Shown: in pieces, positions 2,767 to 58,413 of the stretch | Numbering within the stretch: position 1 is the first letter of the stretch | How the letters are laid out: each line of letters begins with the position of its first letter | Origin: Naegleria gruberi | Taxonomy: Eukaryota | Length of the DNA stretch: 64,000 nt | Assembly: GCA_000004985.1 (NCBI GenBank) | Contig: GG738929.1 | Strand: one strand, 5' to 3' | Position numbers and translations under genes: made by a program | Notes under the pieces: generated by a model | What the model saw: the letters and a program-made list of their open reading frames with translations, nothing else | Told to the model about the DNA's origin: nothing | The model's database searches: none

Positions 2767-3900
2767 TTAGAAACACTTTCTGTGGACAATACCTGGGCCG
2801 GCATCCTCATATTCTTCCTTTGTGATCCACATTTGTTGGAAAGTGGACAATGAAGCCAAGATGGAACCACCAATCCAGACAGAGTACTTTCTTTCTGGTG
2901 GAGCAACAACCTTAATCTTCATGGAGGCTGGAGCCATAGCAGTCAATTCCTTGGTCATTCTTTCAGCAATACCTTCGAACATAGTAGTACCACCAGACAA
3001 GACAACGTTACCGTACAAGTCCTTTCTGATATCAATATCACATTTACCAATGGAGTTGAAAGTAGTTTCATGAACACCAGCAGCTTCCATACCAATGAAG
3101 TTTGGTTGGAACAAAACTTCTGGACATCTGAATCTTTCGTTACCGACAGTAATGACATTACCGTCTGGCAATTCGTATGACTTTTCAACAGATGATGATT
3201 CAGCAGCAACCTTCATTTCAGCTTCAAAGTCCAAAGCAATATAACAGAGCTTTTCCTTGATATCTCTGACAATTTCTCTTTCAGCAGTTGTGTTGAATGA
3301 GTAACCTCTTTCCATCAAAATCTTCATCAAGTAATCAGTCAAGTCACGACCAGCCAAATCCAATCTCAAAATGGCGTGTGGCAAAGCATAACCTTCATAG
3401 ATAGGAACAGTGTGGGAAACACCATCACCAGAGTCCAAAACAATACCAGTAGTTCTACCAGAAGCATACAAGGACAAGACAGCTTGAATGGCAACATACA
3501 TAGCTGGAACTGAGAAAGTTTCAAACATAATTTGAGTCATCTTTTCTCTGTTAGCCTTTGGATTCAAAGGAGCTTCAGTCAACAAGACTGGATGTTCTTC
3601 TGGAGCAACTCTCAATTCATTGTAGAAAGTGTGATGCCAGATCTTTTCCATATCGTCCCAATTGGTAACAATACCGTGTTCAATTGGATACTTCAAAGTC
3701 AAGATACCTCTCTTAGATTGAGCTTCATCACCAACATAGGCATCCTTGTTACCCATACCAACCATGATGGACTTTTGCTTTGGTCTACCAATAATTGAAG
3801 GGAAGACAGCTCTTGGAGCATCATCACCAGCAAAACCAGCTTTACACATACCAGAACCGTTGTCAACAACGAGGGCTTGAACGTCTTCACAGAAGGACAT
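2767..3900 (-). CDS. act: Actin (378 aa, single exon)
   Basis: Translation [36 protein letters not shown]...[40 protein letters not shown] is near-identical to conventional actins; track ORF extends upstream to 3987 but first plausible ATG is 3900-3898; strong yeast-like codon bias. Confidence 0.97.
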
Positions 3901-16496: not shown

Positions 16497-17585
16497 TTAT
16501 TTACGAGGTGGTCTGTATCCGTGCTTGATTGCTGTTTTGAGAAGATGGGGATCTTGCTGTAGTTGTGGAGGAAGATCTGGAAAGATTTTACCATTTAATC
16601 TGAGACATGAAATAATGTTGGATTTGGGAAGAGTAAGGAGTTGAGTTGGAGAAATTTTCATGATGGCATTAGCATTCGATTTTAGCAGTAAGGTCAGTAA
16701 AATTTCCTCACTCGAGTATGTGTAATTATCTGGAAGGTGTGAAATGGTGTGAGCTTTGAAATTTGGGGAACGAATGACTGTTTCAATAACACAATCAAGT
16801 TTTTTAAATTCTGTTGGAATGTGCTTGAGAATATCTGGATAAATTTCAAGAAGTTCTAAAATGATGTCCAGTGTTTGATACTTTTTTGGGATGAATTCTA
16901 AAGCAAAAGGAGTTTGTTTGAGGGCACATTTCAATATTTCCACATCTTCCATATAATCATCAAAAAATCCAATTGTTGTTCCATCTGCCTTTACGCATTG
17001 TAAAATTTGATCTCTGGTCAACTTGGACTTATCCAAATATTGAACTATCCCAGCACCAATCATGGCATTAATGACATCTTCATTCGAATGCAATTCTACT
17101 GGAATATTTTCAGCAATAATCATTCCACGGCCATCAGAATAGTTCAATGCATTTACAATAAATTCCTTATCATATTTGAACCCCTTTGGTAAACAATAGT
17201 AGTGTGTAGGATTAAACTGAATAATTTTCATTTGAATATCTCTATGACTTAACAATGAAGAATGAAAATGAACATATAGAGAGGGATGCAATTCAAGTAT
17301 TCTCAGAGCCATTTCTTTATCAGATCTCACTCTCTCAGACGCATACTCGTATGATTTGGGTTCCATTTCAATTATTATCCAAATAAAATCCAAATTATCA
17401 TCAAATCTACTTTTAAGAGTATTCAAAATTGGTCTATATAAAAAACATTCCACATATTTAGAATTTAACAATGCATCCAGAGCTTGCTTATCCTCAAACC
17501 AGTCATACCAATCCTTAATTATTCCAAGAATAGACCTATCATACCTGAGAGCTGTCAAACACAGATCGTGATCATTCCTAAGCAA
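16497..17585 (-). CDS. DUF4116-like repeat protein fragment (362 aa; TTG-start in the ORF track, no in-frame ATG)
   Basis: Repeats resembling DUF4116 (e.g. DKEFIVNALNYSDGRGMIIAENIPVELHSNEDVINAMIGAGIVQYL); frame is open 15 codons upstream but lacks ATG; immediately follows ORF 17591-18136 in another frame. Confidence 0.4.
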   Translation of the reverse strand: MLRNDHDLCLTALRYDRSILGIIKDWYDWFEDKQALDALLNSKYVECFLYRPILNTLKSRFDDNLDFIWIIIEMEPKSYEYASERVRSDKEMALRILELHPSLYVHFHSSLLSHRDIQMKIIQFNPTHYYCLPKGFKYDKEFIVNALNYSDGRGMIIAENIPVELHSNEDVINAMIGAGIVQYLDKSKLTRDQILQCVKADGTTIGFFDDYMEDVEILKCALKQTPFALEFIPKKYQTLDIILELLEIYPDILKHIPTEFKKLDCVIETVIRSPNFKAHTISHLPDNYTYSSEEILLTLLLKSNANAIMKISPTQLLTLPKSNIISCLRLNGKIFPDLPPQLQQDPHLLKTAIKHGYRPPRK

Positions 17586-17590
17586 CTTGA

Positions 17591-18136
17591 TTAATTGTTC
17601 AGTAAAAACTCCTCTCCAACTAAACTCTTAACAATTTCAGTTTCATTAATAACTAATTTCAAATCAAGTCTTGCCAATATATTTCTATTCATCGTATCCA
17701 TTCTCAACAAATCATTCAATAATGTTTCTTTCATTGATTTTGGTAATATGAAATAATATTCCAAATCTACTTTTAACAATTCCAAAGCTTTATCTCTATT
17801 GTGAATATTTAATTGAGTTAAACGCAAATAATTAATTAGATTTTTGCAGTAAATTAACTCTTCCTTATTGAATGTTGTAAAATGTTTATAAACAATTAGC
17901 ACGTGACGGGAAATGGAAATTAATTCCTTGACAAAATTTAAATCATCAATTACATCATCATTCAATTTGTAATTCTCCAGAAACGAAATTCTACTGTTTT
18001 GATCGATACATTCTTCTAAATCGGAGAGAAATTCAATTTGTTCGATTCTTTTTCGTTGCGTGTATGAAAAGAAAGATCGTAAATGATTACATGATGAAAA
18101 ATCTATCAATTCCAACACCACTTCATGTTCTGCCAT
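17591..18136 (-). CDS. Hypothetical protein (181 aa), probable N-terminal part of the downstream DUF4116-like gene
   Basis: ATG ORF ends 5 nt before the 16497-17585 ORF begins in a different frame; junction contains a T5 run (GAGTTTTTACTG). Confidence 0.35.
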   Translation of the reverse strand: MAEHEVVLELIDFSSCNHLRSFFSYTQRKRIEQIEFLSDLEECIDQNSRISFLENYKLNDDVIDDLNFVKELISISRHVLIVYKHFTTFNKEELIYCKNLINYLRLTQLNIHNRDKALELLKVDLEYYFILPKSMKETLLNDLLRMDTMNRNILARLDLKLVINETEIVKSLVGEEFLLNN

Positions 18137-18263: not shown

Positions 18264-19703
18264 TTAATCAATTTGTCTTCTGAGATATGGCAAAGCAATT
18301 CTGAAGAGCTTTTCATAATCAATCTTATCAGCTTCTTCGTCCCAGTTGTTATTAATATAACCCTTAACACCTTCCTTCAAATATGGGAGAGCAGCACGCA
18401 AAATTTCCTTGAATTTGATTTCAGCATCAGCTTCTTCTTGGTATTCAGCAGAAGCAGAAACGAGGTTCTTAAGATATTCCTTACCAGTCTTCTTGAGTTC
18501 ATCACGAACAACCTTCCAGATCTTCTTCAAGAACTTGTCAGATTGTGGCATATCTTCCAATGGAATACCGAATTGAGAGGTCAAATAAGCCTTACCCAAA
18601 CCCTTAGCAATACCAACGGCCTTCTTGAAGATCTTACCGAGCTTGAGGTCAGACATTTCTTCATTTTGGTCCCAGTTGTTGTTAATATATTCCTTAACAC
18701 CAGACTTGATGTATGGCAAAACCTTCTTCCAGATCTTACCTAACTTGAGCTTTTGAGCATCAGCAGCAGAGTCAAAGTTTTGGTTGACATATGACTTGAC
18801 AGCACCCTTTCCGATATCCTTAACAACCTTCCAGACCTTACCCCAGAATTTGTCAGACAATTCCATTTCTTCATCCCAGTTTTGATTGACATAATCCTTG
18901 GCAGCATTCTTTCCGATATCCTTAACAACCTTCCAGATTGAACTGAAAAACTTTTTATCAGCTTCTTCGTCGAAATTGTTAGCAATGTAGTTCTTAACAC
19001 CAGCCTTGATGTATGGCAAAATGGTCTTGATGACTTCAGACCACTTCTTGTCAGCCATTTCTTCAGCATCCCAGTTGTTATTAATATATTGTTTAGCACC
19101 TTCCTTCAAGTATGGGAGAACAGCCTTGAACAATTTACCCAATTTGAGATCAGCTTCTTCTTCTGGAATTTCATCCCAGTTCTTGTTGACGTAATCCTTG
19201 ATGGCAGCTGTTGGTAAATATTTGATAGGTAAAGATTATCGATACAGAGGTGATGATATCGAGATTCGAATAAAATTGTTATTAGAATCGAATAGTGACA
19301 GAAGATCAGAATCATCGGTTAAAAATAATTTCCAGTCCACAAAACGATATCATTGATGATAATATCAAATAAACAATAACCAGTTATCCTCATCATTTTC
19401 ATATTACTACTTACCCTTTCCAATTTCACCGACAACCTTCAAAGCCTTCTTCCAGAATGACTTGTCAGCCAATTCTTCATCAGTCAAAATGTAGTTAGCA
19501 GGAGTACGAATCAATCTCTTGATGAGAGCAGGGGAAAGAACCAAATCAGCTTGTTCTTCAACAACAGCTGGTTGTTGTTTCAAGAAATTCTTGAAGAAAA
19601 TTGACAATTCTTGATCAGCTTGTTCAGTAACTTGAGCAGAGACTGCAATAGTTGCGAACAAGGCGACGAGCAAGAGAGCAAGTAATTGCTTGGAAACGTT
19701 CAT
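18264..19703 (-). CDS. Secreted Lys/Trp-rich tandem-repeat protein (410 aa, 2 exons)
   Basis: join(complement(19415..19703),complement(18264..19207)); signal peptide MNVSKQLLALLLVALFATIAVSA; 207-nt intron (GTAAGT...AACAG) in phase 1; second exon has about 8 degenerate repeats of roughly 36 aa (consensus ~ KIWKKVLPYIKSGVKEYINNNWDxxEE) with acidic spacers. Confidence 0.6.
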
Positions 19704-20280
19704 GTTCGTTGATTGTTTTTTTTTTAGATGATGAAAATTTGAAAGGAGCGTGATTGGCACTTTTTGAATGAAAGATTGTAATCAGCATAAATAAACATTG
19801 GAATCAAGAAGTCGTACATGGATAGTTATAATAACTACAAAAGATTTTAACAACCTACAATGTTGGGACTATGTTGGATTGGTATGACCTGTTTTGTTGG
19901 ATTCGTGTTAGGTCAAAGAGATTCGTGCTGTGGCTCTGAAGTTAATGGTTGCATTTCCCTGTTTTAGAGCAAATACACAACATTTCATCATTATAATCTG
20001 AAGGAGTTATTGTTTACAAAATATTGACCTCATAATATCAACATTGGTTTGTACATTATCAATTATCTGATGAAAATATTGAGATTGGTTCCTAATCATC
20101 ATATTATAATGATACTAAATACTAATGGTGCATCCAACTAACTTTTAACTTACTGAGTTTCATAAATTAATAGGTATGAATCTTTGGGATTATTTCTAAG
20201 AATCACAGGTAATAGATATCTTTTAAATTTCCTTGTTTGCAATTACTGATTGAATTGCAAATATTCTTGTTAACAACAGG

Positions 20281-20987: not shown

Positions 20988-21062
20988 ACCCGCTACCAGG
21001 ACTTGAACCTGGATCATGCGGAATGAATAAGTCGCATATTCTAACCATTGAACTACAGCGGG
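20988..21062 (-). tRNA. tRNA gene with enlarged anticodon region (identity unresolved)
   Basis: Minus strand CCCGCTGTAGTTCAATGGTTAGAATATGCGACTTATTCATTCCGCATGATCCAGGTTCAAGTCCTGGTAGCGGG: perfect 7-bp acceptor stem, D-arm GTTC/GAAT, T-arm CCAGG-TTCAAGT-CCTGG; anticodon stem ATGCG/CGCAT encloses 12 nt (ACTTATTCATTC). Confidence 0.55.
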
Positions 21063-23200: not shown

Positions 23201-25210
23201 TTACAATAAAGTAAGCAGTAAAACAATGAACATCAGTCCATAAATACTAACACTCAAAGTATTAGATAAATTTCCTTGAGTACTACAATCAATACCAGCC
23301 CAACCATAGAAACATTGACATTCATCCTTAGAGCAAATACCACTCTTACAATTATGAAGTCCACATTTGAGAGTGATGGAAGAAGCTGATGATGGAATGT
23401 CACATGATGAAGTTGAGGAAAGATAACATCTACATTCTCCGTTAAAGCATACACCCCTATTGGCTTTCCAACCACATTCACTATTATAAACAGGTCCTAA
23501 ATTTGTAGTAGCTGGGCAAGAAGTTGGTGAATCATTGAATGTTGATTCAAATGAAGAATTAGATTGAATATATCGCATAGCATCAAGAGTATTGACAATA
23601 CCCCAACCTAAATCATTACCTGGTTCAGTATTTTTGGATGCTGTCATCATGACTGCTTTTCTCATTTGATATGGAGTCCAGGTTGGATTTTTCTGAAGAA
23701 TTAATGCAACACAACCAGCAACAATTGGAGTGGCAAAACTTGTTCCAGAACTTGTTAAATAGTCACTATCTGTATTTGGAGAAACCAAGTATGTTGAGCT
23801 ACCTCTTGCACTAACTTCAGGTTTTGTTCTTCCATCATCGGAAGGTCCTCTACTTGAAAAGTATGAAATTTTTCCATTAACATCCACTGATCCAACTGAG
23901 ATAACATCAAATCCATCCGAAGGAGTTCCGATAGTATTACTTCCACCTGCACCTTCATTTCCAGCAGCTAGCACCATAATTAATCCCTTGTAACGAGAAG
24001 CAATATTGACAACTCTAGTGAGTGGTGAAGTGACACCATTAAATTCCTTCTTTGAATGTGAATACCAATCAGTATATCCAAGTGAGGCACTAACAATATC
24101 TGCTCCCAATCTTTCTCCCCATTCAATAGCTTCAATAAAATTATCCTCTTCTACTTGTGTTTCAGTTCTGACATCTTCAGTTTTAGCTAATAATACTGAA
24201 GCGCCTGGAGCAGGTCCCATAAAATTACCAAGATCATAACCAGCAATAGCAGATAAACATTGTGTACCATGATTAGAAGTTGTAGCTGCTTCTCCACTTT
24301 CGTTATCAGTATTAGTGTCCTTATTTACAAAGTCATATTGTCCAGTAATATGAATTGATTTGAGTGCTTTGTGTTGAAGGTGGAATCCACTGTCACAAAC
24401 AAGAATTGTGATACCAGTTCCATTTAGTTCAGGATACATATTTCTTGTAGCCACAACATTCACTTGATTTAATTGGTTGAAAGCCACTCCATAACTAGAA
24501 TCATCAGCTACATGTCTTGTATTAACAACCTTTTGATTTCTTTCCTCTAAGTTTGATCTTTTGAAAGTGGCAACTCTTTCAATTCTATCTACAAATGCTA
24601 ATTTTTGAATCTTTTCAATTTGTTCTTGTGTTACATCAGAAACTGTAATGGCATTCAACCAATTACTACGTGCTCCAATTTTTTGATCTTGTCTTAACAT
24701 ATTTACAATCTTTTGTACGTATTCTTCTACAATAGGAACATCATGAATTGAATAGAGTGATAATTCCTCACCACTAACATCTCTCTTCAAGGAAATTGAT
24801 TCTTGAACAACTTTACGTCTTCTTGCAAGTGCCTTCTCGCTGATTGGAACACTTGTAGGAAAGTGTTTTTCCAAGCTTTCCGAAGCTAAACTTTTAAGTT
24901 TTGTTATTCTTCCATCAATGATCGAAGGAAGATGCAAAGACGATCGTGAATTCTTCTCATCAATTCCCTTATTATTAAAATATATCCAAATCTTCATCGA
25001 TGAAGGTAATGTTGATGAAGGTGTATTACTTGAATTTACTCCTCCAACCAATAATACAAAAGTTGTTGCAACAATCATCATGCTGACCACAACCATCATC
25101 ATTGAACTTTTATATTGTTTCTGCTGTTGTTGACAGGAAGACTTTGTATTCATCATCATCTTCCAAGTATTCTTGTTCGATCTTGGCAAGGCAAATGATG
25201 TGGAGAACAT
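23201..25210 (-). CDS. Subtilisin-like serine protease (peptidase S8) with C-terminal Cys-rich EGF-like modules and hydrophobic anchor (669 aa)
   Basis: Catalytic-triad motifs VCDSGF (Asp), HGTQC (His), GTSFATPIVAG (Ser); N-terminal signal/anchor; C-terminus CxxxxC-rich then SIYGLMFIVLLLTLL. Confidence 0.85.
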   Translation of the reverse strand: MFSTSFALPRSNKNTWKMMMNTKSSCQQQQKQYKSSMMMVVVSMMIVATTFVLLVGGVNSSNTPSSTLPSSMKIWIYFNNKGIDEKNSRSSLHLPSIIDGRITKLKSLASESLEKHFPTSVPISEKALARRRKVVQESISLKRDVSGEELSLYSIHDVPIVEEYVQKIVNMLRQDQKIGARSNWLNAITVSDVTQEQIEKIQKLAFVDRIERVATFKRSNLEERNQKVVNTRHVADDSSYGVAFNQLNQVNVVATRNMYPELNGTGITILVCDSGFHLQHKALKSIHITGQYDFVNKDTNTDNESGEAATTSNHGTQCLSAIAGYDLGNFMGPAPGASVLLAKTEDVRTETQVEEDNFIEAIEWGERLGADIVSASLGYTDWYSHSKKEFNGVTSPLTRVVNIASRYKGLIMVLAAGNEGAGGSNTIGTPSDGFDVISVGSVDVNGKISYFSSRGPSDDGRTKPEVSARGSSTYLVSPNTDSDYLTSSGTSFATPIVAGCVALILQKNPTWTPYQMRKAVMMTASKNTEPGNDLGWGIVNTLDAMRYIQSNSSFESTFNDSPTSCPATTNLGPVYNSECGWKANRGVCFNGECRCYLSSTSSCDIPSSASSITLKCGLHNCKSGICSKDECQCFYGWAGIDCSTQGNLSNTLSVSIYGLMFIVLLLTLL

Positions 25211-34617: not shown

Positions 34618-36254
34618 ATGAAATATTCGAAACAACAGTCAACTCGCACAGTTGTAGGCTTGATTGTCCTTGTACTGATGTTGTGTTCTTGCTGCTGGTT
34701 GGTTGTTGCCAATTCTACTACACAACAACAACAACAACTAGAAAATTCCATAACCAAACACGATTTGAAACTCTTGAAAATCTTGGCCAAGTTGTCAAGA
34801 GGAAAATTAATGAAGGAATTGGGTGAAAAGTTTACTCACGACAATACTATTCTTGCTGGTAAGTGTTTTTATTAGAGTTGTGGATGTTTAATTTATATAT
34901 AATATTTTGTAAAGATTATAATTTTGTCAATGGAATGAAAGATATTCTTCCACATATGAAAGTAATCATCAAGACTGTTGTTGTTGGAAGTAACATGACA
35001 GAACCAATGGTTGTTAAGGAACAAAGAAAGGAATTTAATGGTGAAATGAAAAAGTATTTGCCAGAGATTTTTGGTAAATTCAAGAATGTTTTTGGAAACT
35101 TTGTAAAGGATTTGAGTTCTGACATTAATTTTACAATGCCAGAAAAATCATTGTGGAAACAATTTTTGAAAATTTCCAGAAGAGCTCACAAGCAATTTGT
35201 TAAAGGAAAGTGGAATCATTCTGTAAAAGAAGTCAATAATAAGGATGCTCTCTACTGGAGACAAGTTAAGGATATGATGAAGCAATTCAAAACATCAAAC
35301 GAAACTAATGTTCCAAAGAAATCATCTTCTCAACAAGAATTTAAAACAGTCGATGAAAAACAATACTGGAAAGATGTTTTGAAAATGATCAAGGAATTAA
35401 AGAAAGATTCCAAGCAACCTGTTGATGCCAAGAAGGAAGAAGACAGAAAGTATTGGAGACAAGTTAAGGGCATGATGAAGGAATTCAGAAAACCACAAGA
35501 TAACAAAAAGGAAGAAGACAAAAAGTACTGGAGACAAGTATCTTCTCTTATCAAATCATTTGGTAAAGATCGTATGAAGAAACCTTATGGTTTAGTTGAT
35601 GAAAAGAAAGAATCTGATCGTACATATTGGATCAACGTAAAGAGGATGATTAAAGAAAACTTTGAATCTCCAAAGAAAGAAACCTCTCCAAAAGATGTTG
35701 CTTACTGGCGTGATGTTCACAAGATGATCAAGGACGTCTCCATCAAGAAGAAATTGGATCAAGATCGTGAGTTTATTTCCAAGCCATTGGAAAGAAAATT
35801 GAGAAAGTGGTCACCATCTCACAGAGTTCTCAACAAAAAGCTCAGAAAAGAAATGAAACCAGCTCTCAAGATGATCACTTTAATCTCCTTCCAATCATCT
35901 GGTAATTCCACAAAGGAAATTTCAAAGAATTTGAAGCAAGTATTGTACAATGTAGTTCCATACCTCAAGGAACATGCCAAGAAGGGTGGAAAATTGAACA
36001 TTTTACAAGTAACACCCCTCATCAAGGAAGGTGTTAAGGATATGATAATCAGAGATACCAAATTAATGGGAAGCACCTTTAGAAAGAATATGTGGAATTT
36101 AATAACAAAGCTCAACAAACACATCTTTGAGAATCCAACCTCTTTCAAAATGGAGGGATTAAAGTTGCCATTCAGCATGTTGAAGAAGATGAATAAGACA
36201 ATCAAATCTATTAGAAAGATTGACGATTTTGATATGCTTGCTGATTCTCTTTAG
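34618..36254 (+). CDS. Secreted Lys-rich tandem-repeat protein (526 aa, 2 exons), paralog of the 18264-19703 gene
   Basis: join(34618..34858,34915..36254); signal peptide MKYSKQQSTRTVVGLIVLVLMLCSCCWLVVA; 56-nt GTAAGT intron; six repeats of about 30 aa (consensus K.YWRQVK.MIKEFxK....KKEED); C-terminal segment VVPYLKEHAKKGGKLNILQVTPLIKEGVKDMI shares the LPY(L/I)K(E/S)G(V/A)K motif of the other gene. Confidence 0.6.
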
Positions 36255-40006: not shown

Positions 40007-43000
40007 TTAGAGCAATTTTCTCAGCTTTTCCTTAAGAGATTCACCAACAGCATCACTGTTATTTTCCAAGAAGGAAAGCAAACCATCACAAACTGAACCT
40101 AAATTACCTGAAGAACATAATGAAAGAATATCTTGCTTGACCTTTTCACCTCTCAATGTAGCAATGGCTTGTGTAACAGTTTCCTTATTATCTTCAATCC
40201 AAGACAAGAATTCTCTATCGTTAGTCCAAACTTGTTCATTATTGATGACCTTTTGTCTGAGGATTTCTCTCTTGATAGATAACTTGTTTGATTGAGCATC
40301 TACACATTCACTTAATTCCTTCAACAAATTGAATTCGAGAATCTTTCTCTTCAATCTCCAGTAGAAGTAAGTTCTAGCAGTCTTCCAAGAAATGATTTCG
40401 GTAATAACACCCTTAGCCTTCATTCTACCTGGAGTATCATGGAGATCAGCAAAACATTCAGCTACTTGAGTATAAATTGGAATCAACTTTTCAACTCTCT
40501 TACCCATCTTGACCTTGATTTCATCCTTTTCCTTCAAAGAAATGTCTGATCTTCCCAATTCCTTGGCAAGGTTAATATATTCAGCATCCAAACGTTGAAT
40601 AGTAGCAACAATTTCTTGCTTTCTGTACTTAATTTCAACAATACCAGAAGCTTCCAAAATACCACCCTTGGACTTATCATCAGCAAACATTTCCATAACA
40701 TCATTATTGATCATTGGATCAACAACAACCCAAGCACCACCTCTCAATTCACCATTTGGTGGAATGTAAACAAAAACTGGTTGCTTGTAATTGGTCAAAG
40801 CATCAACAATGTAAGAACCAAACTTGAGGATTTCATCAAACATATCTCTTTGACCACCAGAGAAACCTCTCCAGTTAGCAAAGATCATGAGTGGCAATTG
40901 TTCTCCCTTGTTGAAATCATTGATTGCTTGAGCAGTCTTGAATGCAGAATCTGGATACCAGACTTGGCCAGATTTTTGAACTACTCTTTCTCTAGAGTTA
41001 CTATCAGCAGGATCAGCAGGAATAATTTGTTCATAGGTCTTTGTGTCAACAGCAATAACACCCATTGGAATACCACCAAGTCTAGCACGAGCAACAATAA
41101 TATTCTTTGCCCAACCAGTCAAAGTTTCAAAGAATGAGTTCTTATCAAAGAAACCACTCAACCATGTTGATTCTCCATTTTCACCTTCAACAGTCTTACC
41201 AACCAACATTTCTCTAAAGTCATAGTGGCTACCTTCAACTGGGAGGTATTGAATTTGACGTTCAGGATCATCAAGAGTCTTCAAGATTGGAAGTGCAGAA
41301 CCAACTGACTTTGGAACATATGACAACCACTTGAGAGCATCCTTGATAGCAAGATAGTCATCCTTAGCAATCAAGTGAGTGACACCATTAGGATTCATGA
41401 TTTGAATACCACCCAATTGCAAATTACTGGTATAAACTTCTCTAGACAAAACCTTATTCAAAGCACCAGCACCAGTGAGCAAGATAGGAGCTTTTCTATT
41501 TTGAATAATTCTTTGACCAAGACGATTAACATAGGCACCAATACCAACACTTCTTGCAGCAATATAATTCATAGTGAAAACTTCTTCATAGGCACGAGAA
41601 GTTTCACCAGCAATCATACCAGATCCTCTCAAATTTTCGACACCAATACCATTTTCCTTACCAATAATGTCAATAATCTTCCATCTCTTTTCTCCGTTAA
41701 CTTCAATTTCAACAGCATTGACAGAGTTGGTCTTTTGAAGTTTTTCGTAATCATTTGGAGTGAGGTAAAGATATTTGAAGCCCTTAGTGCTATCATTTGG
41801 TTCGTTCCATTCAATCTTGAATAATTCTCTGACTTCATCAGCCAAACCAATTCTAGCACCAGAGTTGGCAGCAATGTAGAATCTTGGAATCTTCAACTTT
41901 CTAGCCATTTCACTAGCCAATTGGAATACTTCATCTTCAATAACACCAAAAGAACCAGATTGATATGTGATATCGTTGGCAATTAAAATCATATCTCTGC
42001 CATCCTTAGCTTCTGGAGTGAACAAAGTAACCTTCCAAACAACCATACCACATGTATTCTTACCTATAGCATTCTTGACTGGATTTTCAATCAAGAATTT
42101 GCCAGTTGTATCGAGAATATATTCAGTAAGACTGATGAAAGTGCTTGGAATGTCTTCCTTAGTCAAATCGTTATGTTCTTTCCACATGGAACGAACAACT
42201 CTTTCGAACAAGTATGGGAAATCATAGACATAGGATGTATCATTGTTGTGAGCAAGAACTCTCTTTTGATCAACAGCTTGGAGAATAGGGTGAGGAATAT
42301 TAACATCCAAACCTTCCAATGGCTTCTTTTCACCAACAACAGTCTTGTAAACGGTTCTACCAGTAGTTTGATCCTTTTCTTCTCTGTAAACGTCCAATGT
42401 AAGATTGTAACCAGTGTCATCAAGAGCAATGAATCTAAAGGTTTGTGGTTGAGAGGTTCGGGAGAATTTAGCAGTGAATCTAACTTCAACTTCACTAACT
42501 CTCAACTTCCACAATCTCTTACCATAAACCTTTTGGAATCTTTCAATAATTTCACCTACCATATCTGCCTTGACAACAACTTCAGGTAAGAAATTGACGA
42601 AAATGTGATTAGCATAACTAGTTGGGTAATTCTTATCAGCCATAGCAATTTCCAAAGCATTGATTGAGGCAACAACATATCTTTCAAGTTCTGAAATTTG
42701 CAATTCTTCAGGATTTTCTTCAGTGAAGATATCACCTTGCAATACCAAAGTACGAACGAAGAATCTCTTATTCAAGAAATCATATCTATTCAAACCAAGC
42801 TCCTTCTTCTTTTGACCATAGAAAACGTGAACAGATGGATCCTTACATGGGTATGGAGTAATGTTATAATTAGATAATTTCTTAAGGAAAAGTTGGAAGG
42901 CAAGTGTAGGTTCAATATGTCTGTACATTGGATCTTCGTCATAGTTGAATCTTTGTCTGAAAGTAAAGTAGAATGGCAATTTATCTTGAACTTCAACGAC

Positions 43001-46000
43001 AACAGTAACTCTCTTAATTTCGTTATATTGGAGAGATTCGCTGTGCTTCTTCAAAAGGTTAGTAAGGGATGGGAGAAGTTCAACATCATTTGGTGTTGGT
43101 CCGTGAGCTCTCAACAAAATCTTCAAAACATTAGTATTGTCAGCATCGTCGTTATTTTCAAAGATCTTCATAACATCTGGAAGGTGAGCATCAATATCAC
43201 TGACAGAATCAAAGATAGCCAAAACACCAAAACCAATGTTATCTTCAGTCTCTGAGAGACTGCTCAAACAGTCCATAGAAATAGAACCAACAATACCATC
43301 AGACTTTAATGAACCTGAAGTGGACTTTTCAGTATTCATAAAACTAAATTCAACAGTCTTGAACTTTGGTTGGGAGGTAACTCTTGAAATATCAATATCA
43401 AAAGTACAGTATGCCTTTCTGATGTAGACTTCAGCAGCCAAGTTAGCAATTCTTTCATCTGGATCAGAGAAGAATTCAAGAAGAATGTCGAAACTATAGT
43501 TAGACTTGACAATTAATTCCTTCAAACAAGCAAGCTTTTGTTGATTATCAACAGCTTCAAGTCCATCCTTAAAGTATCCTTCCATTTCATCCTTCATTCT
43601 TTGCTTAGAAGGCAATCTACTTGAGGTGAGGATGTGTTTAGCAGCAACAGCAACATCACTGAATTCTGGAGCAACAAATGAAGCCAATTCATCCAAAAGT
43701 GGAGTTGATTCCTTAACCATGTCGAGTTCTTCAATAATTTCTAAAAGAGAACGAATAACCTTATTCTTACTGCTAAGTCTAAAGTGGGAGAGACCAATTT
43801 GGTAAGTCTTGTTGAGGTTTTCAGAGTGTTTTTGTCTCAATTCAAACCAAACAGCTTCTCTTCTCTTACCACCAGTGGTATCAAAGATCTTTTCAGTTTG
43901 AATATATTCTTCAAGTAATTTGGCGAGAGTGGAGAAAGCATGTTGCTTGTATCCATTATTGAAGAGTTCCAAAAGTTCAAAAACTGGTTTGGCAGCGATG
44001 AGGAATTCTTCCTTCTTAGCTCCTTCAAGACCACTTTCAAAGTTCTTGAAAATAGAAGTAATTTCCTTAACTAAATCCTCATTGTAAACATCTTGGGTGT
44101 GATCATTATCATCCTTGCAACAATATTCGTCGTATTCAATCTTTCTCTTTTGCAAAAGGTTATTGACTTCTCTAACCAATGATACTGGTAAGAATTTTCT
44201 CAAAACTGAAAGCTTTTCAATCATTTCATGGATAATAACATTTCTATCACCGAGTTTTCTGAGTGACAACATGGTTTCTGAGAGTTTGTCATTGAAAATG
44301 AAAGCAGGATAATCATAACCAGCCAACAAGTTTTGAACAGTTTCCAAAGCAGAAGAAACAACTCTATTTGGAGGAAGTCTTGCATTAACCTTAGCAGCAG
44401 GAGGGAATTGGCCTTCGAATGGAAGTGATCTCTTAACTTGGGATTTATCATCAAGATCGATTATAGCAATGATATCTCCTTGGTTAACACCAGTACCATC
44501 AACAAGACAGTGATTAACTCTACCTGGAAGTGGAGCATAAACAGTGACAATCATCTTCATGACTTCCAATTCAGCAACTGGAGTATTTGGTTTAACATGA
44601 GCACCATTTTCAACCAAATACTTCATGAATTTACCACTCAATGTTGATCTCAATTGAGATGGATCGAATTCCTTAGTAAACATACAAACCTTACCGTCAA
44701 GTGTAAGTTTGAGGCCCGAAGGTTCTTCACTGGCATAAGAGACGTGTGATCCATTGTCAACAACAATGAGTAATCCAGAATCTCTCAATTCAGACAATTC
44801 AGCTTCTATTGTAGATCCATTCAAAGCCAAAGTATATTTGTTTGGTCCACTTCTAACTCCGTCAACTTGATATTTAATATTTTCATAAATAAGTTCAATA
44901 GAGTAGTGTACATCAACATTGTCAAATGAAGGAACCTGTCCTCTTTCAACAGCCAAAATCCAATTCTTGGCTCTCTCGGAAACCATTCTGTGGAGAGTAT
45001 GGACTGCACCACAAGTAACTACTAAAAGTGTATCAGGCTTTTCCAATTTAATTTTCTTTGAAATAAGATTATCCAACCATGATGTTGTATAATTGTTATT
45101 AACATAATCATCAAACTTCAAAAGTGATTGTAAATATTCAGCTGTTGTTCTGATTTCGCCTCTGATGGCTAATTCAGAAAGTGTTGAAAGCATAGTCTTT
45201 CTTGCTTCTTCTCTTGTTTCACCCTTTGTGAAAATGTGACCGAATTGAGAATCAGAGAAAGCGTGGATGGCACCTTGGGAACGAATTGAGAAATATCCCC
45301 AAACGTTTGGATTTGTTCTAAAGTTAAGTTCAACAACAGAACCACAAGTTGGTTGGAACCCACTTTCTGGATTTTCAGCTGTAACACGGCAAGCAATAAC
45401 GTGACCAACTGGAGGTTGTCTCCTAGCAGCATCGTTAACATCAATTTGTGGTTCAACAGTGTAGAGATCCTTCAATTGAACACCAAAGAATCTTCTAATA
45501 TCTGGAATACGATTTAATGATATTCCCATAGCAATTTGAAGTTGGATAGATGGAATATTGGTGAGTGTAATCCATTCTGTGACTGGATGTTCAACTTGCA
45601 ATCTAGGATTCAATTCCAAAAAGTAAACATGTTCAGTAGCAGGTTCATAAAGATATTCAACTGTACCAGCACCACTATAATTAACACTACGAGCAAGTGT
45701 GACAGCTGCAGCTTCCATTTTATCAATAACGTGCTTTGGAGCAACTGTAACTGGACCTTCTTCAATAATCTTTTGATGTCTTCTTTGAACGGAACAATCT
45801 CTTGAATATAATGCGAGAGCATTACCATGTTTATCAGCAACAACTTGAACTTCCAAGTGTCTACTTTCACTAGAGAGTTTCATCAAGAAAATAGGAGATC
45901 CCGGCACTTCATTTTTAACTTGTGAAAATCCCAATTTCAATTCAATATCATTTGCTACTTTACGAATACCTTTACCACCACCACCTTCAGAAGCTTTAAT

Positions 46001-46663
46001 CATTATTGGATATCCAATCTTATTTGCACATTTCAAAGCTTCTGATTCAGAAGTGATACAACACTTTAAATAAATGTCTTCAGGAATTGGTAAACCACTC
46101 TTTGTAATATCGTAGTGAACCTCGGAACCAGACCATGGAATACAAGGAACACCAGCTGCTTGAGCCAAAATTGTGGAAGAAATCTTGTCTCCCAAAGCTT
46201 CCATTGGTACACTGTCTGGACCAATAAAAGCAATTTGTCGTTTAGTTTGTGAAAGTGAAAATGGAAGTTCTGGATTTTCACTAGCGTGTCCCCAACCTGG
46301 CCAAACTGCATCACAACAAAATTGTTCAGCAATATCTACTATTAATTTAACATTGCTGTAATTGTTATAATTCGATTCACCTGGTACTTTGACTAATTCA
46401 TCAGCCAATCTAACATATTCGGCATTGGCTTGGATATCTTCAGGTGTAGCCATTACTACGAATTTAATTTCATCTGATTTACCAAAAACTTCATTACACC
46501 ATTTTCTCATTGAACGAATTCCTTTAACTGCGGCAATACCATTGTTTGCTATCAGTATCTTTTTGATTATCTTGTTGCCACCCATAAAACTAACATATTC
46601 TTCTACACTTGCGAAAATGCCATGATTAGATTGTGTAGGAATAACTGGACTATCTGTTTCCAT
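40007..46663 (-). CDS. ACC: Acetyl-CoA carboxylase, multidomain eukaryotic type (2218 aa, single exon)
   Basis: Biotin carboxylase (ATP-grasp, ...GYPIMIKASEGGGGKGIRKV...), biotin-carboxyl-carrier motif EVMKM, central domain and carboxyltransferase domain, all collinear with eukaryotic ACC1. Confidence 0.97.
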   Translation of the reverse strand: METDSPVIPTQSNHGIFASVEEYVSFMGGNKIIKKILIANNGIAAVKGIRSMRKWCNEVFGKSDEIKFVVMATPEDIQANAEYVRLADELVKVPGESNYNNYSNVKLIVDIAEQFCCDAVWPGWGHASENPELPFSLSQTKRQIAFIGPDSVPMEALGDKISSTILAQAAGVPCIPWSGSEVHYDITKSGLPIPEDIYLKCCITSESEALKCANKIGYPIMIKASEGGGGKGIRKVANDIELKLGFSQVKNEVPGSPIFLMKLSSESRHLEVQVVADKHGNALALYSRDCSVQRRHQKIIEEGPVTVAPKHVIDKMEAAAVTLARSVNYSGAGTVEYLYEPATEHVYFLELNPRLQVEHPVTEWITLTNIPSIQLQIAMGISLNRIPDIRRFFGVQLKDLYTVEPQIDVNDAARRQPPVGHVIACRVTAENPESGFQPTCGSVVELNFRTNPNVWGYFSIRSQGAIHAFSDSQFGHIFTKGETREEARKTMLSTLSELAIRGEIRTTAEYLQSLLKFDDYVNNNYTTSWLDNLISKKIKLEKPDTLLVVTCGAVHTLHRMVSERAKNWILAVERGQVPSFDNVDVHYSIELIYENIKYQVDGVRSGPNKYTLALNGSTIEAELSELRDSGLLIVVDNGSHVSYASEEPSGLKLTLDGKVCMFTKEFDPSQLRSTLSGKFMKYLVENGAHVKPNTPVAELEVMKMIVTVYAPLPGRVNHCLVDGTGVNQGDIIAIIDLDDKSQVKRSLPFEGQFPPAAKVNARLPPNRVVSSALETVQNLLAGYDYPAFIFNDKLSETMLSLRKLGDRNVIIHEMIEKLSVLRKFLPVSLVREVNNLLQKRKIEYDEYCCKDDNDHTQDVYNEDLVKEITSIFKNFESGLEGAKKEEFLIAAKPVFELLELFNNGYKQHAFSTLAKLLEEYIQTEKIFDTTGGKRREAVWFELRQKHSENLNKTYQIGLSHFRLSSKNKVIRSLLEIIEELDMVKESTPLLDELASFVAPEFSDVAVAAKHILTSSRLPSKQRMKDEMEGYFKDGLEAVDNQQKLACLKELIVKSNYSFDILLEFFSDPDERIANLAAEVYIRKAYCTFDIDISRVTSQPKFKTVEFSFMNTEKSTSGSLKSDGIVGSISMDCLSSLSETEDNIGFGVLAIFDSVSDIDAHLPDVMKIFENNDDADNTNVLKILLRAHGPTPNDVELLPSLTNLLKKHSESLQYNEIKRVTVVVEVQDKLPFYFTFRQRFNYDEDPMYRHIEPTLAFQLFLKKLSNYNITPYPCKDPSVHVFYGQKKKELGLNRYDFLNKRFFVRTLVLQGDIFTEENPEELQISELERYVVASINALEIAMADKNYPTSYANHIFVNFLPEVVVKADMVGEIIERFQKVYGKRLWKLRVSEVEVRFTAKFSRTSQPQTFRFIALDDTGYNLTLDVYREEKDQTTGRTVYKTVVGEKKPLEGLDVNIPHPILQAVDQKRVLAHNNDTSYVYDFPYLFERVVRSMWKEHNDLTKEDIPSTFISLTEYILDTTGKFLIENPVKNAIGKNTCGMVVWKVTLFTPEAKDGRDMILIANDITYQSGSFGVIEDEVFQLASEMARKLKIPRFYIAANSGARIGLADEVRELFKIEWNEPNDSTKGFKYLYLTPNDYEKLQKTNSVNAVEIEVNGEKRWKIIDIIGKENGIGVENLRGSGMIAGETSRAYEEVFTMNYIAARSVGIGAYVNRLGQRIIQNRKAPILLTGAGALNKVLSREVYTSNLQLGGIQIMNPNGVTHLIAKDDYLAIKDALKWLSYVPKSVGSALPILKTLDDPERQIQYLPVEGSHYDFREMLVGKTVEGENGESTWLSGFFDKNSFFETLTGWAKNIIVARARLGGIPMGVIAVDTKTYEQIIPADPADSNSRERVVQKSGQVWYPDSAFKTAQAINDFNKGEQLPLMIFANWRGFSGGQRDMFDEILKFGSYIVDALTNYKQPVFVYIPPNGELRGGAWVVVDPMINNDVMEMFADDKSKGGILEASGIVEIKYRKQEIVATIQRLDAEYINLAKELGRSDISLKEKDEIKVKMGKRVEKLIPIYTQVAECFADLHDTPGRMKAKGVITEIISWKTARTYFYWRLKRKILEFNLLKELSECVDAQSNKLSIKREILRQKVINNEQVWTNDREFLSWIEDNKETVTQAIATLRGEKVKQDILSLCSSGNLGSVCDGLLSFLENNSDAVGESLKEKLRKLL

Positions 46664-49642: not shown

Positions 49643-50560
49643 ATGTTGAGAAGAGCTGCCACCATCGCTTCCAAGTCATTCCAAACAACTTCCTTCACCA
49701 AGCAAAATATTGCTGCTGGTTTCTTTACACAACAAAATCAAATCAGAAACTATGCTCCTGCTCAAGTTCAAGTTGAAAAGGGTACCGTTGCTGTTATTTT
49801 GAGTGGTTGTGGTTATCTTGATGGTAGCGAAATTACCGAAGCTGTTAGTGTTATGGTTCACTTGTCAAAGAAGGGATACAAGCTTGCTTTCTTCGCTCCA
49901 GATATTAACCAAGAAGAAACTTATGATCACTTGACAAAGAATGTTGAAAAGAATGAAGTTAGAAACATTCGTACTGAAGCTTCTAGAATCACCAGACAAA
50001 ACGTCCTCAGATTGGACCAATTCAGACCACAAGCTTTCGAAGCTCTCATCATTCCAGGAGGTTTTGGTGTTGCTAAGAATTTGAGCAATTATGCCGAAAA
50101 TCCAACCAACTTCAAGATTCATCCAGAAGTTGAAAAGGCTATCGTCTCAACTCATGAAGCCAAGATCCCAATCGGTATGTGTTGCATTGCTCCAGTTTTG
50201 GCTGCTAAGGCTATTCCACAATGTTCTATTACTTTGGGTGATTCTGATCCATCTGTCACTGAACATGCTAAGTCATATGGTGCTAACTGTGTTCCAAAGT
50301 CAACTTCTCAAGTTGTTGTTGACAAGGATAACAAGTTGGTCACTACTCCAGCTTATATGGGTAAGAACCCAACTGCTTTTGAAGTCTTTGATGGTATTGG
50401 TTCTATGGTTGATTCCGTTATTGAATTGACCGGATCAAAGAGTGATGAAGATGGTGAAATCGATTTTGGTGTTTTGGAAGAAATTGCTGCCAAGAAGATT
50501 GGTATGGATAAATTCACTAAAATGAAGGAACAATTTTACGGAAAGCCACTCTCAAAGTAA
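49643..50560 (+). CDS. ES1/GATD3-like protein (DJ-1/PfpI class I glutamine-amidotransferase-like fold) with N-terminal mitochondrial-type presequence (305 aa)
   Basis: MLRRAATIASKSFQTT presequence; core GTVAVILSGCGYLDGSEITEAVSVMVHLSKKGYKLAFFAPDI...ALIIPGGFGVAKNL...PIGMCCIAP matches ES1/ElbB family. Confidence 0.8.
   Translation: MLRRAATIASKSFQTTSFTKQNIAAGFFTQQNQIRNYAPAQVQVEKGTVAVILSGCGYLDGSEITEAVSVMVHLSKKGYKLAFFAPDINQEETYDHLTKNVEKNEVRNIRTEASRITRQNVLRLDQFRPQAFEALIIPGGFGVAKNLSNYAENPTNFKIHPEVEKAIVSTHEAKIPIGMCCIAPVLAAKAIPQCSITLGDSDPSVTEHAKSYGANCVPKSTSQVVVDKDNKLVTTPAYMGKNPTAFEVFDGIGSMVDSVIELTGSKSDEDGEIDFGVLEEIAAKKIGMDKFTKMKEQFYGKPLSK

Positions 50561-56946: not shown

Positions 56947-58413
<1,467 letters not shown>

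Follow-up and report, generated by a model that had tools for sequence, protein, structure and literature searches.

The stretch of Naegleria gruberi DNA considered here comprises 64,000 nucleotides of contig GG738929.1 (assembly GCA_000004985.1); it is referred to as the window, and all positions are counted from its first letter. On the minus strand, at 18264-19703, it carries a two-exon gene whose product combines a putative signal peptide with tandem repeats rich in lysine and tryptophan. A preliminary description, made from the letters of the window, had likened this product to a multi-peptide precursor. We describe the gene, its protein and a family of relatives, and weigh the reading that the protein is a secretory polyprotein precursor of linear cationic antimicrobial peptides (AMPs) with an aspartate-type boundary instead of dibasic sites, a reading that we hold with moderate confidence.

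Gene, product and repeat units

The target is a real two-exon gene of a Naegleria-type (heterolobosean) amoeba, and positions 18264-19703 coincide exactly with the span of its coding sequence. The start codon ATG occupies 19703-19701 (-) and the stop codon TAA 18266-18264 (-). Exon 1 (19415-19703 (-), 289 nt) runs from the start codon through the signal peptide and the segments U0-U2 to residue 16 of unit U3. It is followed by an intron (19208-19414 (-), 207 nt, GTAAGT...ACAG) with GT..AG borders, which lies in phase 1 inside U3, and by exon 2 (18264-19207 (-), 944 nt including the TAA stop) with the remainder of U3 and units U4-U12. Splicing restores the unit motif by joining FWKKALKVVGEIGK to AAIKDYVNKNWD; the annotated ortholog of N. 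lovaniensis reads ...KALKVVGEIGKAAIRDYINKNWD... across the same junction, and an intron is also present at the corresponding position in the sequence L002. The signal peptide had rightly been assigned to exon 1 by the preliminary description, which reserved the repeats for exon 2; exon 1 in fact also holds U0-U2 and half of the first canonical unit.

The N. lovaniensis gene is a positional ortholog, with a RhoGAP gene upstream and an LRR/F-box gene downstream in both species. Directly downstream of the target, two open reading frames (ORFs) at 16497-18136 (-), one of 362 amino acids (aa) with DUF4116 repeats and one of 181 aa without a Pfam match, separate it from the LRR/F-box gene. In N. lovaniensis the ortholog and the LRR/F-box gene are adjacent, and a BRCT gene is found upstream of the ortholog instead; local synteny between the two species is therefore only partly conserved.

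The full gene model is missing from the protein collection for the source genome, which holds the exon-1 ORF alone. This entry (P0028; such labels are our own handles for proteins) is a 98-aa ORF-only call of exon 1, read through into the intron, on a metagenome contig of ENA. The contig, L001 (ENA ERZ929261, PRJEB11402, k127_14720), corresponds to positions 18531-20239 and is 98.6 % identical to the window over 1723 bp, so that the Naegleria sampled in that metagenome was this strain or one very close to it. Prokaryote-style gene calling on L001 split the target into exon ORFs, namely P0028 and a 201-aa fragment. Splitting of this kind has hidden the family from annotation, and the lesson for annotators is that ORF-based calling breaks the gene at its intron.

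The spliced product has 410 aa, with no cysteine, no histidine, 14.6 % K, 2.9 % W and 15.4 % D+E. By inspection, its N-terminus resembles a cleavable signal peptide, as the preliminary description had claimed: the 23 residues MNVSKQLLALLLVALFATIAVSA (19635-19703 (-)) consist of an n-region MNVSK, a 16-residue hydrophobic h-region and a predicted cleavage site between VSA and Q, with small residues at -3/-1. The signal peptide is kept in all full-length homologs. The mature chain has 44.7 kDa and a pI of 8.45, and with 67 K+R against 63 D+E it is near neutral overall. The term “cationic”, first applied to the whole protein, thus holds for the repeat cores described below, not for the mature chain.

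Behind the signal peptide, three short atypical segments are followed by ten segments that fit one template, K-x-x-K-[IL]-[WF]-K-x-V-x-x-x-x-K-x-G-x-K-x-Y-[IV]-N-x-N-[WF]-D-acidic-[A/S]-D. The tandem repeats of the preliminary description are thus borne out, along with every peptide string it quoted, while its count of about eight units of about 36 aa gives way to ten canonical units of 31-37 aa, the last one truncated to 20 aa, preceded by atypical N-terminal segments. The latter (19464-19634 (-)) are U0, QVTEQAD; U1, QELSIFFKNFLKQQPAVVEEQAD; and U2, LVLSPALIKRLIRTPANYILTDEELAD; each ends in E-x-A-D, and their boundaries are conserved in the orthologs.

The canonical units, all on the minus strand and with coordinates verified by translation, are assigned to types A, B and C and are listed here with their hydrophobic moment (muH) where one is quoted. 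Type B, with the motif WKVVK.IGKG, comprises U3, which spans the intron (19149-19463; KSFWKKALKVVGEIGKAAIKDYVNKNWDEIPEEEAD; muH 0.63), U6 (18852-18956; KKFFSSIWKVVKDIGKNAAKDYVNQNWDEEMELSD; muH 0.71), U7 (18759-18851; KFWGKVWKVVKDIGKGAVKSYVNQNFDSAAD; muH 0.63) and the divergent U10 (18426-18536; KFLKKIWKVVRDELKKTGKEYLKNLVSASAEYQEEAD; muH 0.69). Type A, recognised by LPY[IL]K.G.K.Y, comprises U4 (19050-19148; LKLGKLFKAVLPYLKEGAKQYINNNWDAEEMAD; muH 0.58), U5 (18957-19049; KKWSEVIKTILPYIKAGVKNYIANNFDEEAD; muH 0.55), U8 (18648-18758; AQKLKLGKIWKKVLPYIKSGVKEYINNNWDQNEEMSD; muH 0.65, best span net +6), U11 (18327-18425; AEIKFKEILRAALPYLKEGVKGYINNNWDEEAD; muH 0.63) and the truncated U12 at the C-terminus (18267-18326; KIDYEKLFRIALPYLRRQID), which is conserved in the Naegleria orthologs. 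Type C, with the motif KIFKK..GIAKGLGKAY....GIPLED, is represented by U9 (18537-18647), where LKLGKIFKKAVGIAKGLGKAYLTSQFGIPLED is followed by the short piece MPQSD.

Without their acidic tails, the unit cores (such as LKLGKIWKKVLPYIKSGVKEYINNNW in U8, KFWGKVWKVVKDIGKGAVKSYVNQNF in U7 and LKLGKIFKKAVGIAKGLGKAYLTSQFGIPL in U9) are 26-32 aa long (20 aa in U12), rich in Lys and Trp, and carry a net charge of +2 to +6, which amounts to +4 to +6 in eight of the ten; hydrophobic residues make up 44-50 %. Whole units including the tail are near neutral (net -2 to +3). At the DNA level no tandem repeats are found by Tandem Repeats Finder (TRF), and U6 and U7 share only one 60-nt stretch, at 88 %, so that the repeats are old at this level.

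Hydrophobic moments were calculated with the Eisenberg scale at 100 degrees for the best 18-residue span of each unit, and z scores were obtained against shuffles of that unit. The amphipathic character ascribed to the units was confirmed for nine of the ten canonical ones (U3-U8, U10, U11 and the type C unit U9), which reach moments of 0.55-0.71 at z = 2.3-3.8. The truncated U12 does not stand out from its shuffles (z = 1.65), and the atypical segments U1 and U2 are weakly amphipathic and not above theirs (z = 1.1-1.5). The best spans of the canonical units have a net charge of +1 to +6, with polar residues that are mostly Lys and only 0-2 acidic residues, and over the full length of the chain the moment is highest at 90-100 degrees, as in an alpha helix. 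In length, charge, percentage of hydrophobic residues and moment the cores fall within the range computed for magainin 2, cecropin A, melittin and pleurocidin, using what we take to be the reference sequences of these peptides.

A boundary motif, E-x-[A/S]-D, delimits the segments. There are 12 [A/S]-D dipeptides in the 410-aa protein, compared to 3.85 expected from its composition, and none of 2000 shuffles (0/2000) reaches 12. All 12 occurrences close a segment, at a spacing of 23-37 residues, and in order the boundaries read EQAD, EQAD, ELAD, EEAD, EMAD, EEAD, ELSD, AAD, EMSD, QSD, EEAD and EEAD. In the orthologs of Naegleria and Willaertia the boundary position and the Asp (P1) are kept, and the preceding position (P2) toggles between A and S. 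Because of this toggling, a column test does not discriminate: [A/S]-D columns are invariant in 9/18 cases versus 120/275 for other columns.

Relatives, modules and genomic setting

Relatives of the target were found in a word-indexed search (11) and in an exhaustive profile search of 1.84 billion representatives (25). They include C9374_005675 of N. lovaniensis (E = 6.6e-164; 66 % identity in local alignment), FDP41_005569 of N. fowleri, about 15 “hypothetical proteins” of Willaertia magna and unnamed metagenome proteins; the Willaertia paralogs match at E = 3.3e-87 to 8.7e-19, and syntenic orthologs in other Naegleria share 66-69 % identity. The metagenome member P0016 is encoded on a 43-kb eukaryotic contig, and the best named relatives of the SPX-EXS protein on this contig come from the heteroloboseans Acrasis kona and Willaertia. 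From these matches the family looks Heterolobosea-wide and absent elsewhere. Judged by sequence, the target belongs to an undescribed family of modular polyproteins, in which a signal peptide precedes A, B and C modules closed by E-x-[A/S]-D.

When the members are split at [A/S]-D, bead-like architectures emerge, in which unrelated module types follow each other in varying order and number: types A, B and C, ocellatin-like, Arg-rich and Cys-rich modules (including an antistasin-type one), and NlpC/P60. Type C is the most widespread module of the family and also occurs in P0011, P0016, P0018, P0021, P0022, P0024 and P0029. Even tiny acidic pieces of 2-7 residues end in [A/S]-D, for example VEEAEAD, EELAD, AEEEAD and SD. 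Over the whole family (207 sites in 26 proteins) the logo of the boundary reads E/D at P5, E at P4, E/L/Q at P3, A/S at P2 and D at P1, and the mean net charge is -2.3 over the preceding 8 residues and +3.1 over the following 20.

An NlpC/P60 domain (E ~1e-13) forms the C-terminal end of P0009, P0010, P0011, P0016 and P0020. In P0009, P0010, P0011 and P0020 it begins directly after an [A/S]-D boundary, whereas the final junction before it in P0016 reads ...PLSE, not [A/S]-D; in P0011 and P0016 the modules and NlpC/P60 lie within one uninterrupted ORF. This catalytic domain (PF00877) is present in paralogs and absent from the window protein. The NlpC/P60-bearing members tie the module family to an attack on bacteria.

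Another module with a Pfam counterpart is DILKGAAKDYVNKNWD of the Willaertia protein P0006, which scores 32.9 bits on PF08110 (frog ocellatins), where the gathering cutoff is 22.7. It alone passes this threshold; the window protein is without a match, and a related, degenerate ocellatin-like segment is located at the N-terminus of the Naegleria proteins. The P0006 match spans about 10 residues of the 19-position model, which makes convergence with the frog peptides far likelier than common descent.

Some family members carry further elements. Arg-rich stretches of 25-50 aa, such as VRRRRFGPRRQRVPRFPRVRRERRIRRRS, occur between ...GIPLED and the next ...VESD in P0004-P0010 and P0012 of Willaertia magna, whereas the Naegleria orthologs lack them; perhaps these stretches represent a further class of peptides or multibasic processing regions. 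Among the Cys-rich domains are an antistasin-type motif (P0018, E = 1.4e-5) and C-terminal tails (P0025, P0027 and P0014), and P0020 is also among the Willaertia or metagenome members that combine modules with such domains. The C-terminal 130-aa domain of P0026 has no match in Pfam or PDB, and its assignment as a LAS/M15-type peptidoglycan peptidase was dropped on these grounds.

Searches for known families left the repeats unassigned. The preliminary description had connected the motif with no annotated family, and this holds for Pfam, PDB and the literature searched. Pfam at E <= 10 returned only sub-threshold noise for the full protein, with no apolipoprotein, LEA, perilipin, saposin or antimicrobial family, and PDB gave no significant match by phmmer or by profile. 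A non-significant profile match of the type C module in PDB is to pleurocidin (E = 1); the E-1 enzyme and gasdermin-B also turned up in PDB, through short stretches that resemble LPY.K..VK.Y...NWD by chance. The claim that the protein is cysteine-free and not saposin-like stands as well, since saposin B requires six conserved Cys, the target has none, and Pfam yields no SapB at E <= 10. Apolipoproteins, LEA proteins and perilipins are represented neither in the Pfam nor in the PDB results, and the units measure 31-37 aa, not 11 or 22. Literature searches on antimicrobial or amphipathic peptides, multipeptide precursors and NlpC in Naegleria retrieved nothing on this family; a 2026 bioRxiv paper mentioning Naegleria only treats amoebae with animal peptides.

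A structural model of the exon-2 translation (313 aa) was computed with AlphaFold2 and eight homologs. It reached a predicted local distance difference test (pLDDT) score of 34.8 and a predicted template modelling (pTM) score of 0.21, and comprised ten helices, one per unit, without tertiary packing; the helix breaks fall in N-x-N-W-D and the acidic region. As a control, Willaertia P0009 was modelled from a 5-row alignment (overall pLDDT 41), and its NlpC/P60 part scored 55-79 and its modules near 30.

Within the window, the only similarity suggestive of a paralog is a weak one at 34.6-36.3 kb. This second candidate gene for a secreted Lys/Trp-rich repeat protein lies about 15 kb away (34618-36254 (+)). 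Its exon 1 (34618 to ~34858) has a signal-like start, MKYSKQQSTRTVVGLIVLVLMLCSCCWLVVANS, and ends at a GTAAGT donor, and in a 463-aa ORF (34863-36254) the unit YW(R/K)xV(K)xMIKE(F) is repeated about six times with K/E/D-rich spacers in between. Near its end, VVPYLKEHAKK and VTPLIKEGVKDMI resemble LPYLKEGVKGYI of the target. The similarity to the target by tblastn (E = 0.004) and to the family profile by hhalign (probability 30 %, E = 5.5e-4) is weak; the candidate has no Pfam match and average codon usage.

The strong codon bias noted in the preliminary description is confirmed. Compared to the other long ORFs in the window, the target prefers AAG among Lys codons (0.88 versus 0.51), GGT among Gly codons (0.84 versus 0.53), TTG among Leu codons (0.55 versus 0.33) and GAA among Glu codons (1.00 versus 0.80), and its G+C content at third codon positions (GC3) is 0.44 versus 0.28. 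The same signature is found only in actin (2770-3900 (-)), tubulin (57058-58410 (+)) and a DJ-1/PfpI-like ORF (49643-50557 (+)). The appearance of DJ-1/PfpI in this codon class is unexpected, and its Pfam score of 26.3 bits is just below the gathering cutoff of 26.6.

Two further features of the window may be mentioned. A tRNA gene (20988-21062 (-), Rfam 50.5 bits) has 12 nt (ACTTATTCATTC) between the anticodon-stem arms ATGCG and CGCAT, and in the ARAGORN output its anticodon has four bases, “attc”, with no amino acid assigned; a very short intron is one possible explanation, an expanded loop another. A single uninterrupted ORF of 2218 aa (40010-46663 (-)) encodes a complete eukaryotic-type acetyl-CoA carboxylase and illustrates the context of a gene-dense, intron-poor genome.

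A proposed peptide precursor and its rivals

According to the precursor reading, the 23-aa signal peptide would bring the chain into the endoplasmic reticulum, and the remainder would represent about ten independent helix-forming modules, each composed of a cationic amphipathic core and an acidic tail ending in E-x-[A/S]-D. In the uncut precursor the acidic tails would neutralise the cores, giving each unit a net charge of about 0 and the whole protein a pI of 8.5, and owing to this neutrality the producer would be protected. An endopeptidase would then cut at the [A/S]-D boundaries, and the acidic tails might be trimmed in addition; this could take place inside a granule, lysosome or phagosome, or once the chain has been secreted. 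The freed linear cationic peptides would attach, as amphipathic helices, to the anionic membranes of bacteria and make these permeable. In the paralogs the same modules would be delivered alongside an NlpC/P60 peptidoglycan hydrolase, and such co-delivery suggests that the system serves the killing or digestion of bacterial prey or the competition with bacteria.

The precursor reading is favoured by the boundary motif of the family and its excess over shuffled sequences, the shuffling of modules among paralogs, the tiny acidic pieces, the NlpC/P60 fusions, the lack of a confident fold and the cores in the range of known AMPs; the ocellatin-like module of P0006, the codon usage resembling that of actin and tubulin and the precedent of other Naegleria peptide precursors count in the same direction. 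The preliminary description was to be refuted by a known structural family claiming the repeats or by the lack of a cleavable signal peptide, and neither was observed in the Pfam and PDB searches and the inspection of the N-terminus. A short linear motif that is kept at the junctions of unrelated modules is a classic signature of a polyprotein processing site, and we regard the boundary as a conserved candidate for cleavage, although AMP precursors are not known to use such a site. The multi-peptide precursor of the preliminary description thus gains from the comparative evidence of the family, while the usual dibasic sites are lacking and the release, site of action and activity of the peptides are what we infer.

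Several observations weigh against a precursor. KR or RR pairs, the usual dibasic sites of precursors, do not flank the units, and an endopeptidase with Asp at P1 would be unusual in the secretory route. Cutting solely after [A/S]-D would leave most type A and B peptides near neutral, so that a second trimming step must be assumed. Within the presumed spacer, Y-[IV]-N-x-N-[WF]-D is as strongly conserved as the core, which exceeds the needs of a disposable spacer. In the low-confidence structural model the acidic residues are placed in the first turn of the following helix, and the missing fold is weak evidence, since the alignments behind the models are shallow (9 and 5 sequences). The gene is probably highly expressed, codon bias being only a proxy for expression, and in the literature searched neither the peptide strings nor the accessions of the N. 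fowleri and N. lovaniensis orthologs are mentioned.

As to the enzyme, cleavage after Asn or Asp of the legumain type would fit both N-x-N and [A/S]-D. Processing by a dipeptidyl peptidase (X-Ala), as in promelittin or alpha-factor, was considered and rejected, as the register E-E-A-D followed by K does not fit. A secreted subtilase is encoded 3.5 kb upstream of the target (23204-25210 (-)), with the RhoGAP gene in between; it matches Peptidase_S8 at 1.6e-50, carries at its N-terminus a hydrophobic signal or anchor, is Cys-rich and EGF-like in its C-terminal part and ends in a hydrophobic tail. That this neighbour is the processing enzyme is conceivable, and adjacency in a eukaryotic genome is no evidence for it.

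The most serious rival, which we nevertheless judge unlikely, is an uncut, multivalent envelope-binding protein, whose units would be repeats that bind anionic membranes or cell walls of bacteria, agglutinin- or opsonin-like in the window protein and serving as the targeting region of NlpC/P60 in the paralogs. The acidic run and the Asp would then be a helix N-cap, a linker or a helix-dipole feature and not a cleavage site. Cell-wall-targeting repeats (SH3b, LysM, choline-binding) are found N-terminal in other peptidoglycan hydrolases and lysins, and several paralogs have their modules N-terminal to NlpC/P60; the strong conservation of N-x-N-[WF]-D, the acidic residues in the first helical turn of the model and the near neutrality of whole units would also suit such a protein. 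However, the same motif closes unrelated modules as well as pieces of 2-7 residues that are unfit as binding repeats or helices, and the constraint on P2 (A/S only) and P4/P5 (E/D) over 207 sites exceeds the needs of an N-cap. Moreover, there is no catalytic domain in the window protein that the repeats could target, and no tertiary structure is predicted for the protein.

A precursor might also release cytolytic peptides directed at eukaryotic prey, competitors or host cells, or secreted signalling peptides. The polyprotein anatomy would be the same as for antibacterial peptides, the units have melittin-like properties including Pro-kinked helices such as KVLPYIK, and an ortholog is found in the pathogenic N. 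fowleri. Yet, the fusion partner in the paralogs is a peptidoglycan hydrolase, whose substrate occurs only in bacteria, orthologs are equally present in the non-pathogenic N. lovaniensis and in Willaertia, and Lys-rich amphipathic peptides of 26-32 residues are unlike typical signalling peptides; we consider such a target decidedly improbable.

Tandem amphipathic helices with short breaks, and a codon bias that fits an abundant protein, would be in line with a lipid-binding, protective or structural helical-repeat protein, be it apolipoprotein-like, LEA-like or part of a cyst wall or matrix. There is little to recommend this view in the absence of an apolipoprotein, LEA or perilipin match in Pfam at E <= 10 or a relative in PDB, and with a unit of 31-37 aa in place of 11 or 22. 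The best spans are polar mostly through Lys, at net +2 to +6 with 0-2 acidic residues, and the 410-aa protein shows none of the Cys, Ser/Thr-rich or N-glycosylation features of wall proteins. A structural role would also leave the link to peptidoglycan hydrolases unexplained, and we rate its chances as slim. Finally, the absence of the full model from the protein collection of the source genome might be taken to indicate a chance ORF, a pseudogene or a low-complexity artefact, an idea with practically no chance of being correct, refuted as it is by the intact two-exon ORF with canonical splice sites, the syntenic Naegleria orthologs and the codon usage of highly expressed genes.

Known precursor systems and implications

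The AMP precursors of animals are processed either at dibasic sites (KR/RR) or with the help of dipeptidyl peptidases. Like the target, those of Xenopus magainin and PGLa and of honeybee apidaecin combine a signal peptide with tandem cationic peptides and charge-balancing acidic spacers. In contrast to them, the target lacks dibasic flanks, has Asp at P1, belongs to a protist lineage and has hydrolase-bearing paralogs, and there is no homology.

A closer precedent in taxonomic terms are the naegleriapores, for which the original work is reportedly that of Herbst et al. Naegleria makes antimicrobial saposin-like peptides from multi-peptide precursors, and naegleriapores A and B of N. fowleri exemplify the same strategy in the same genus, with several antimicrobial or pore-forming polypeptides in one secretory precursor (PMC11542183). 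Whereas naegleriapores adopt the saposin fold with six conserved Cys, the target has no Cys, linear helical units of about 30 aa and an E-x-[A/S]-D boundary, and no sequence relationship between the two was found. The target would thus work like the precursors of animal AMPs and of naegleriapores, and is a member of neither group.

A boundary code other than dibasic has a precedent in cnidarian neuropeptide preprohormones, where the N-terminal side of each peptide copy is flanked by acidic (D/E), not basic, residues (PMC7523074). Unlike the target, these animal precursors contain short amidated neuropeptides with basic sites on the C-terminal side, serve an unrelated function and show no homology.

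The paralogs, finally, invite comparison with the NlpC/P60 enzymes of Trichomonas vaginalis, which are said to be eukaryotic peptidoglycan hydrolases of a bacterivorous protist. The family paralogs share the bona fide NlpC/P60 domain with them, and the target gene is without a catalytic domain. The N-terminal parts of the Trichomonas enzymes are reportedly bacterial SH3-type domains, not cationic helical modules.

Taken together, the predicted proteins form a family that lacks annotation, is confined to one lineage and stands out by its boundary code and its hydrolase fusions. A bolder proposal, which we advance tentatively and would not expect to hold in full, is that in Heterolobosea, including N. 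fowleri (FDP41_005569), an Asp-specific convertase acts at E-x-[A/S]-D and frees mixed sets of linear helical, Arg-rich and Cys-rich AMPs together with a peptidoglycan hydrolase.

If the target is indeed a peptide precursor, its processing would follow a code distinct from the dibasic code of animals and fungi, and would point to an Asp-directed step in a secretory or phagosomal route of a eukaryote. Bacterivorous amoebae are often taken as an evolutionary model for killing by phagocytes, and to our knowledge their peptide effectors are almost all saposin-like; the peptides proposed here would be the first linear alpha-helical ones of the host-defence type described from free-living amoebae. 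Membrane-active peptides and a cell-wall hydrolase would be joined in one precursor, and dozens of linear cationic peptides with defined boundaries would become directly accessible to synthesis. In the pathogen N. fowleri, an uncharacterised and probably abundant secreted protein would become a candidate for a role in cytolysis or in the interaction with the microbiota.

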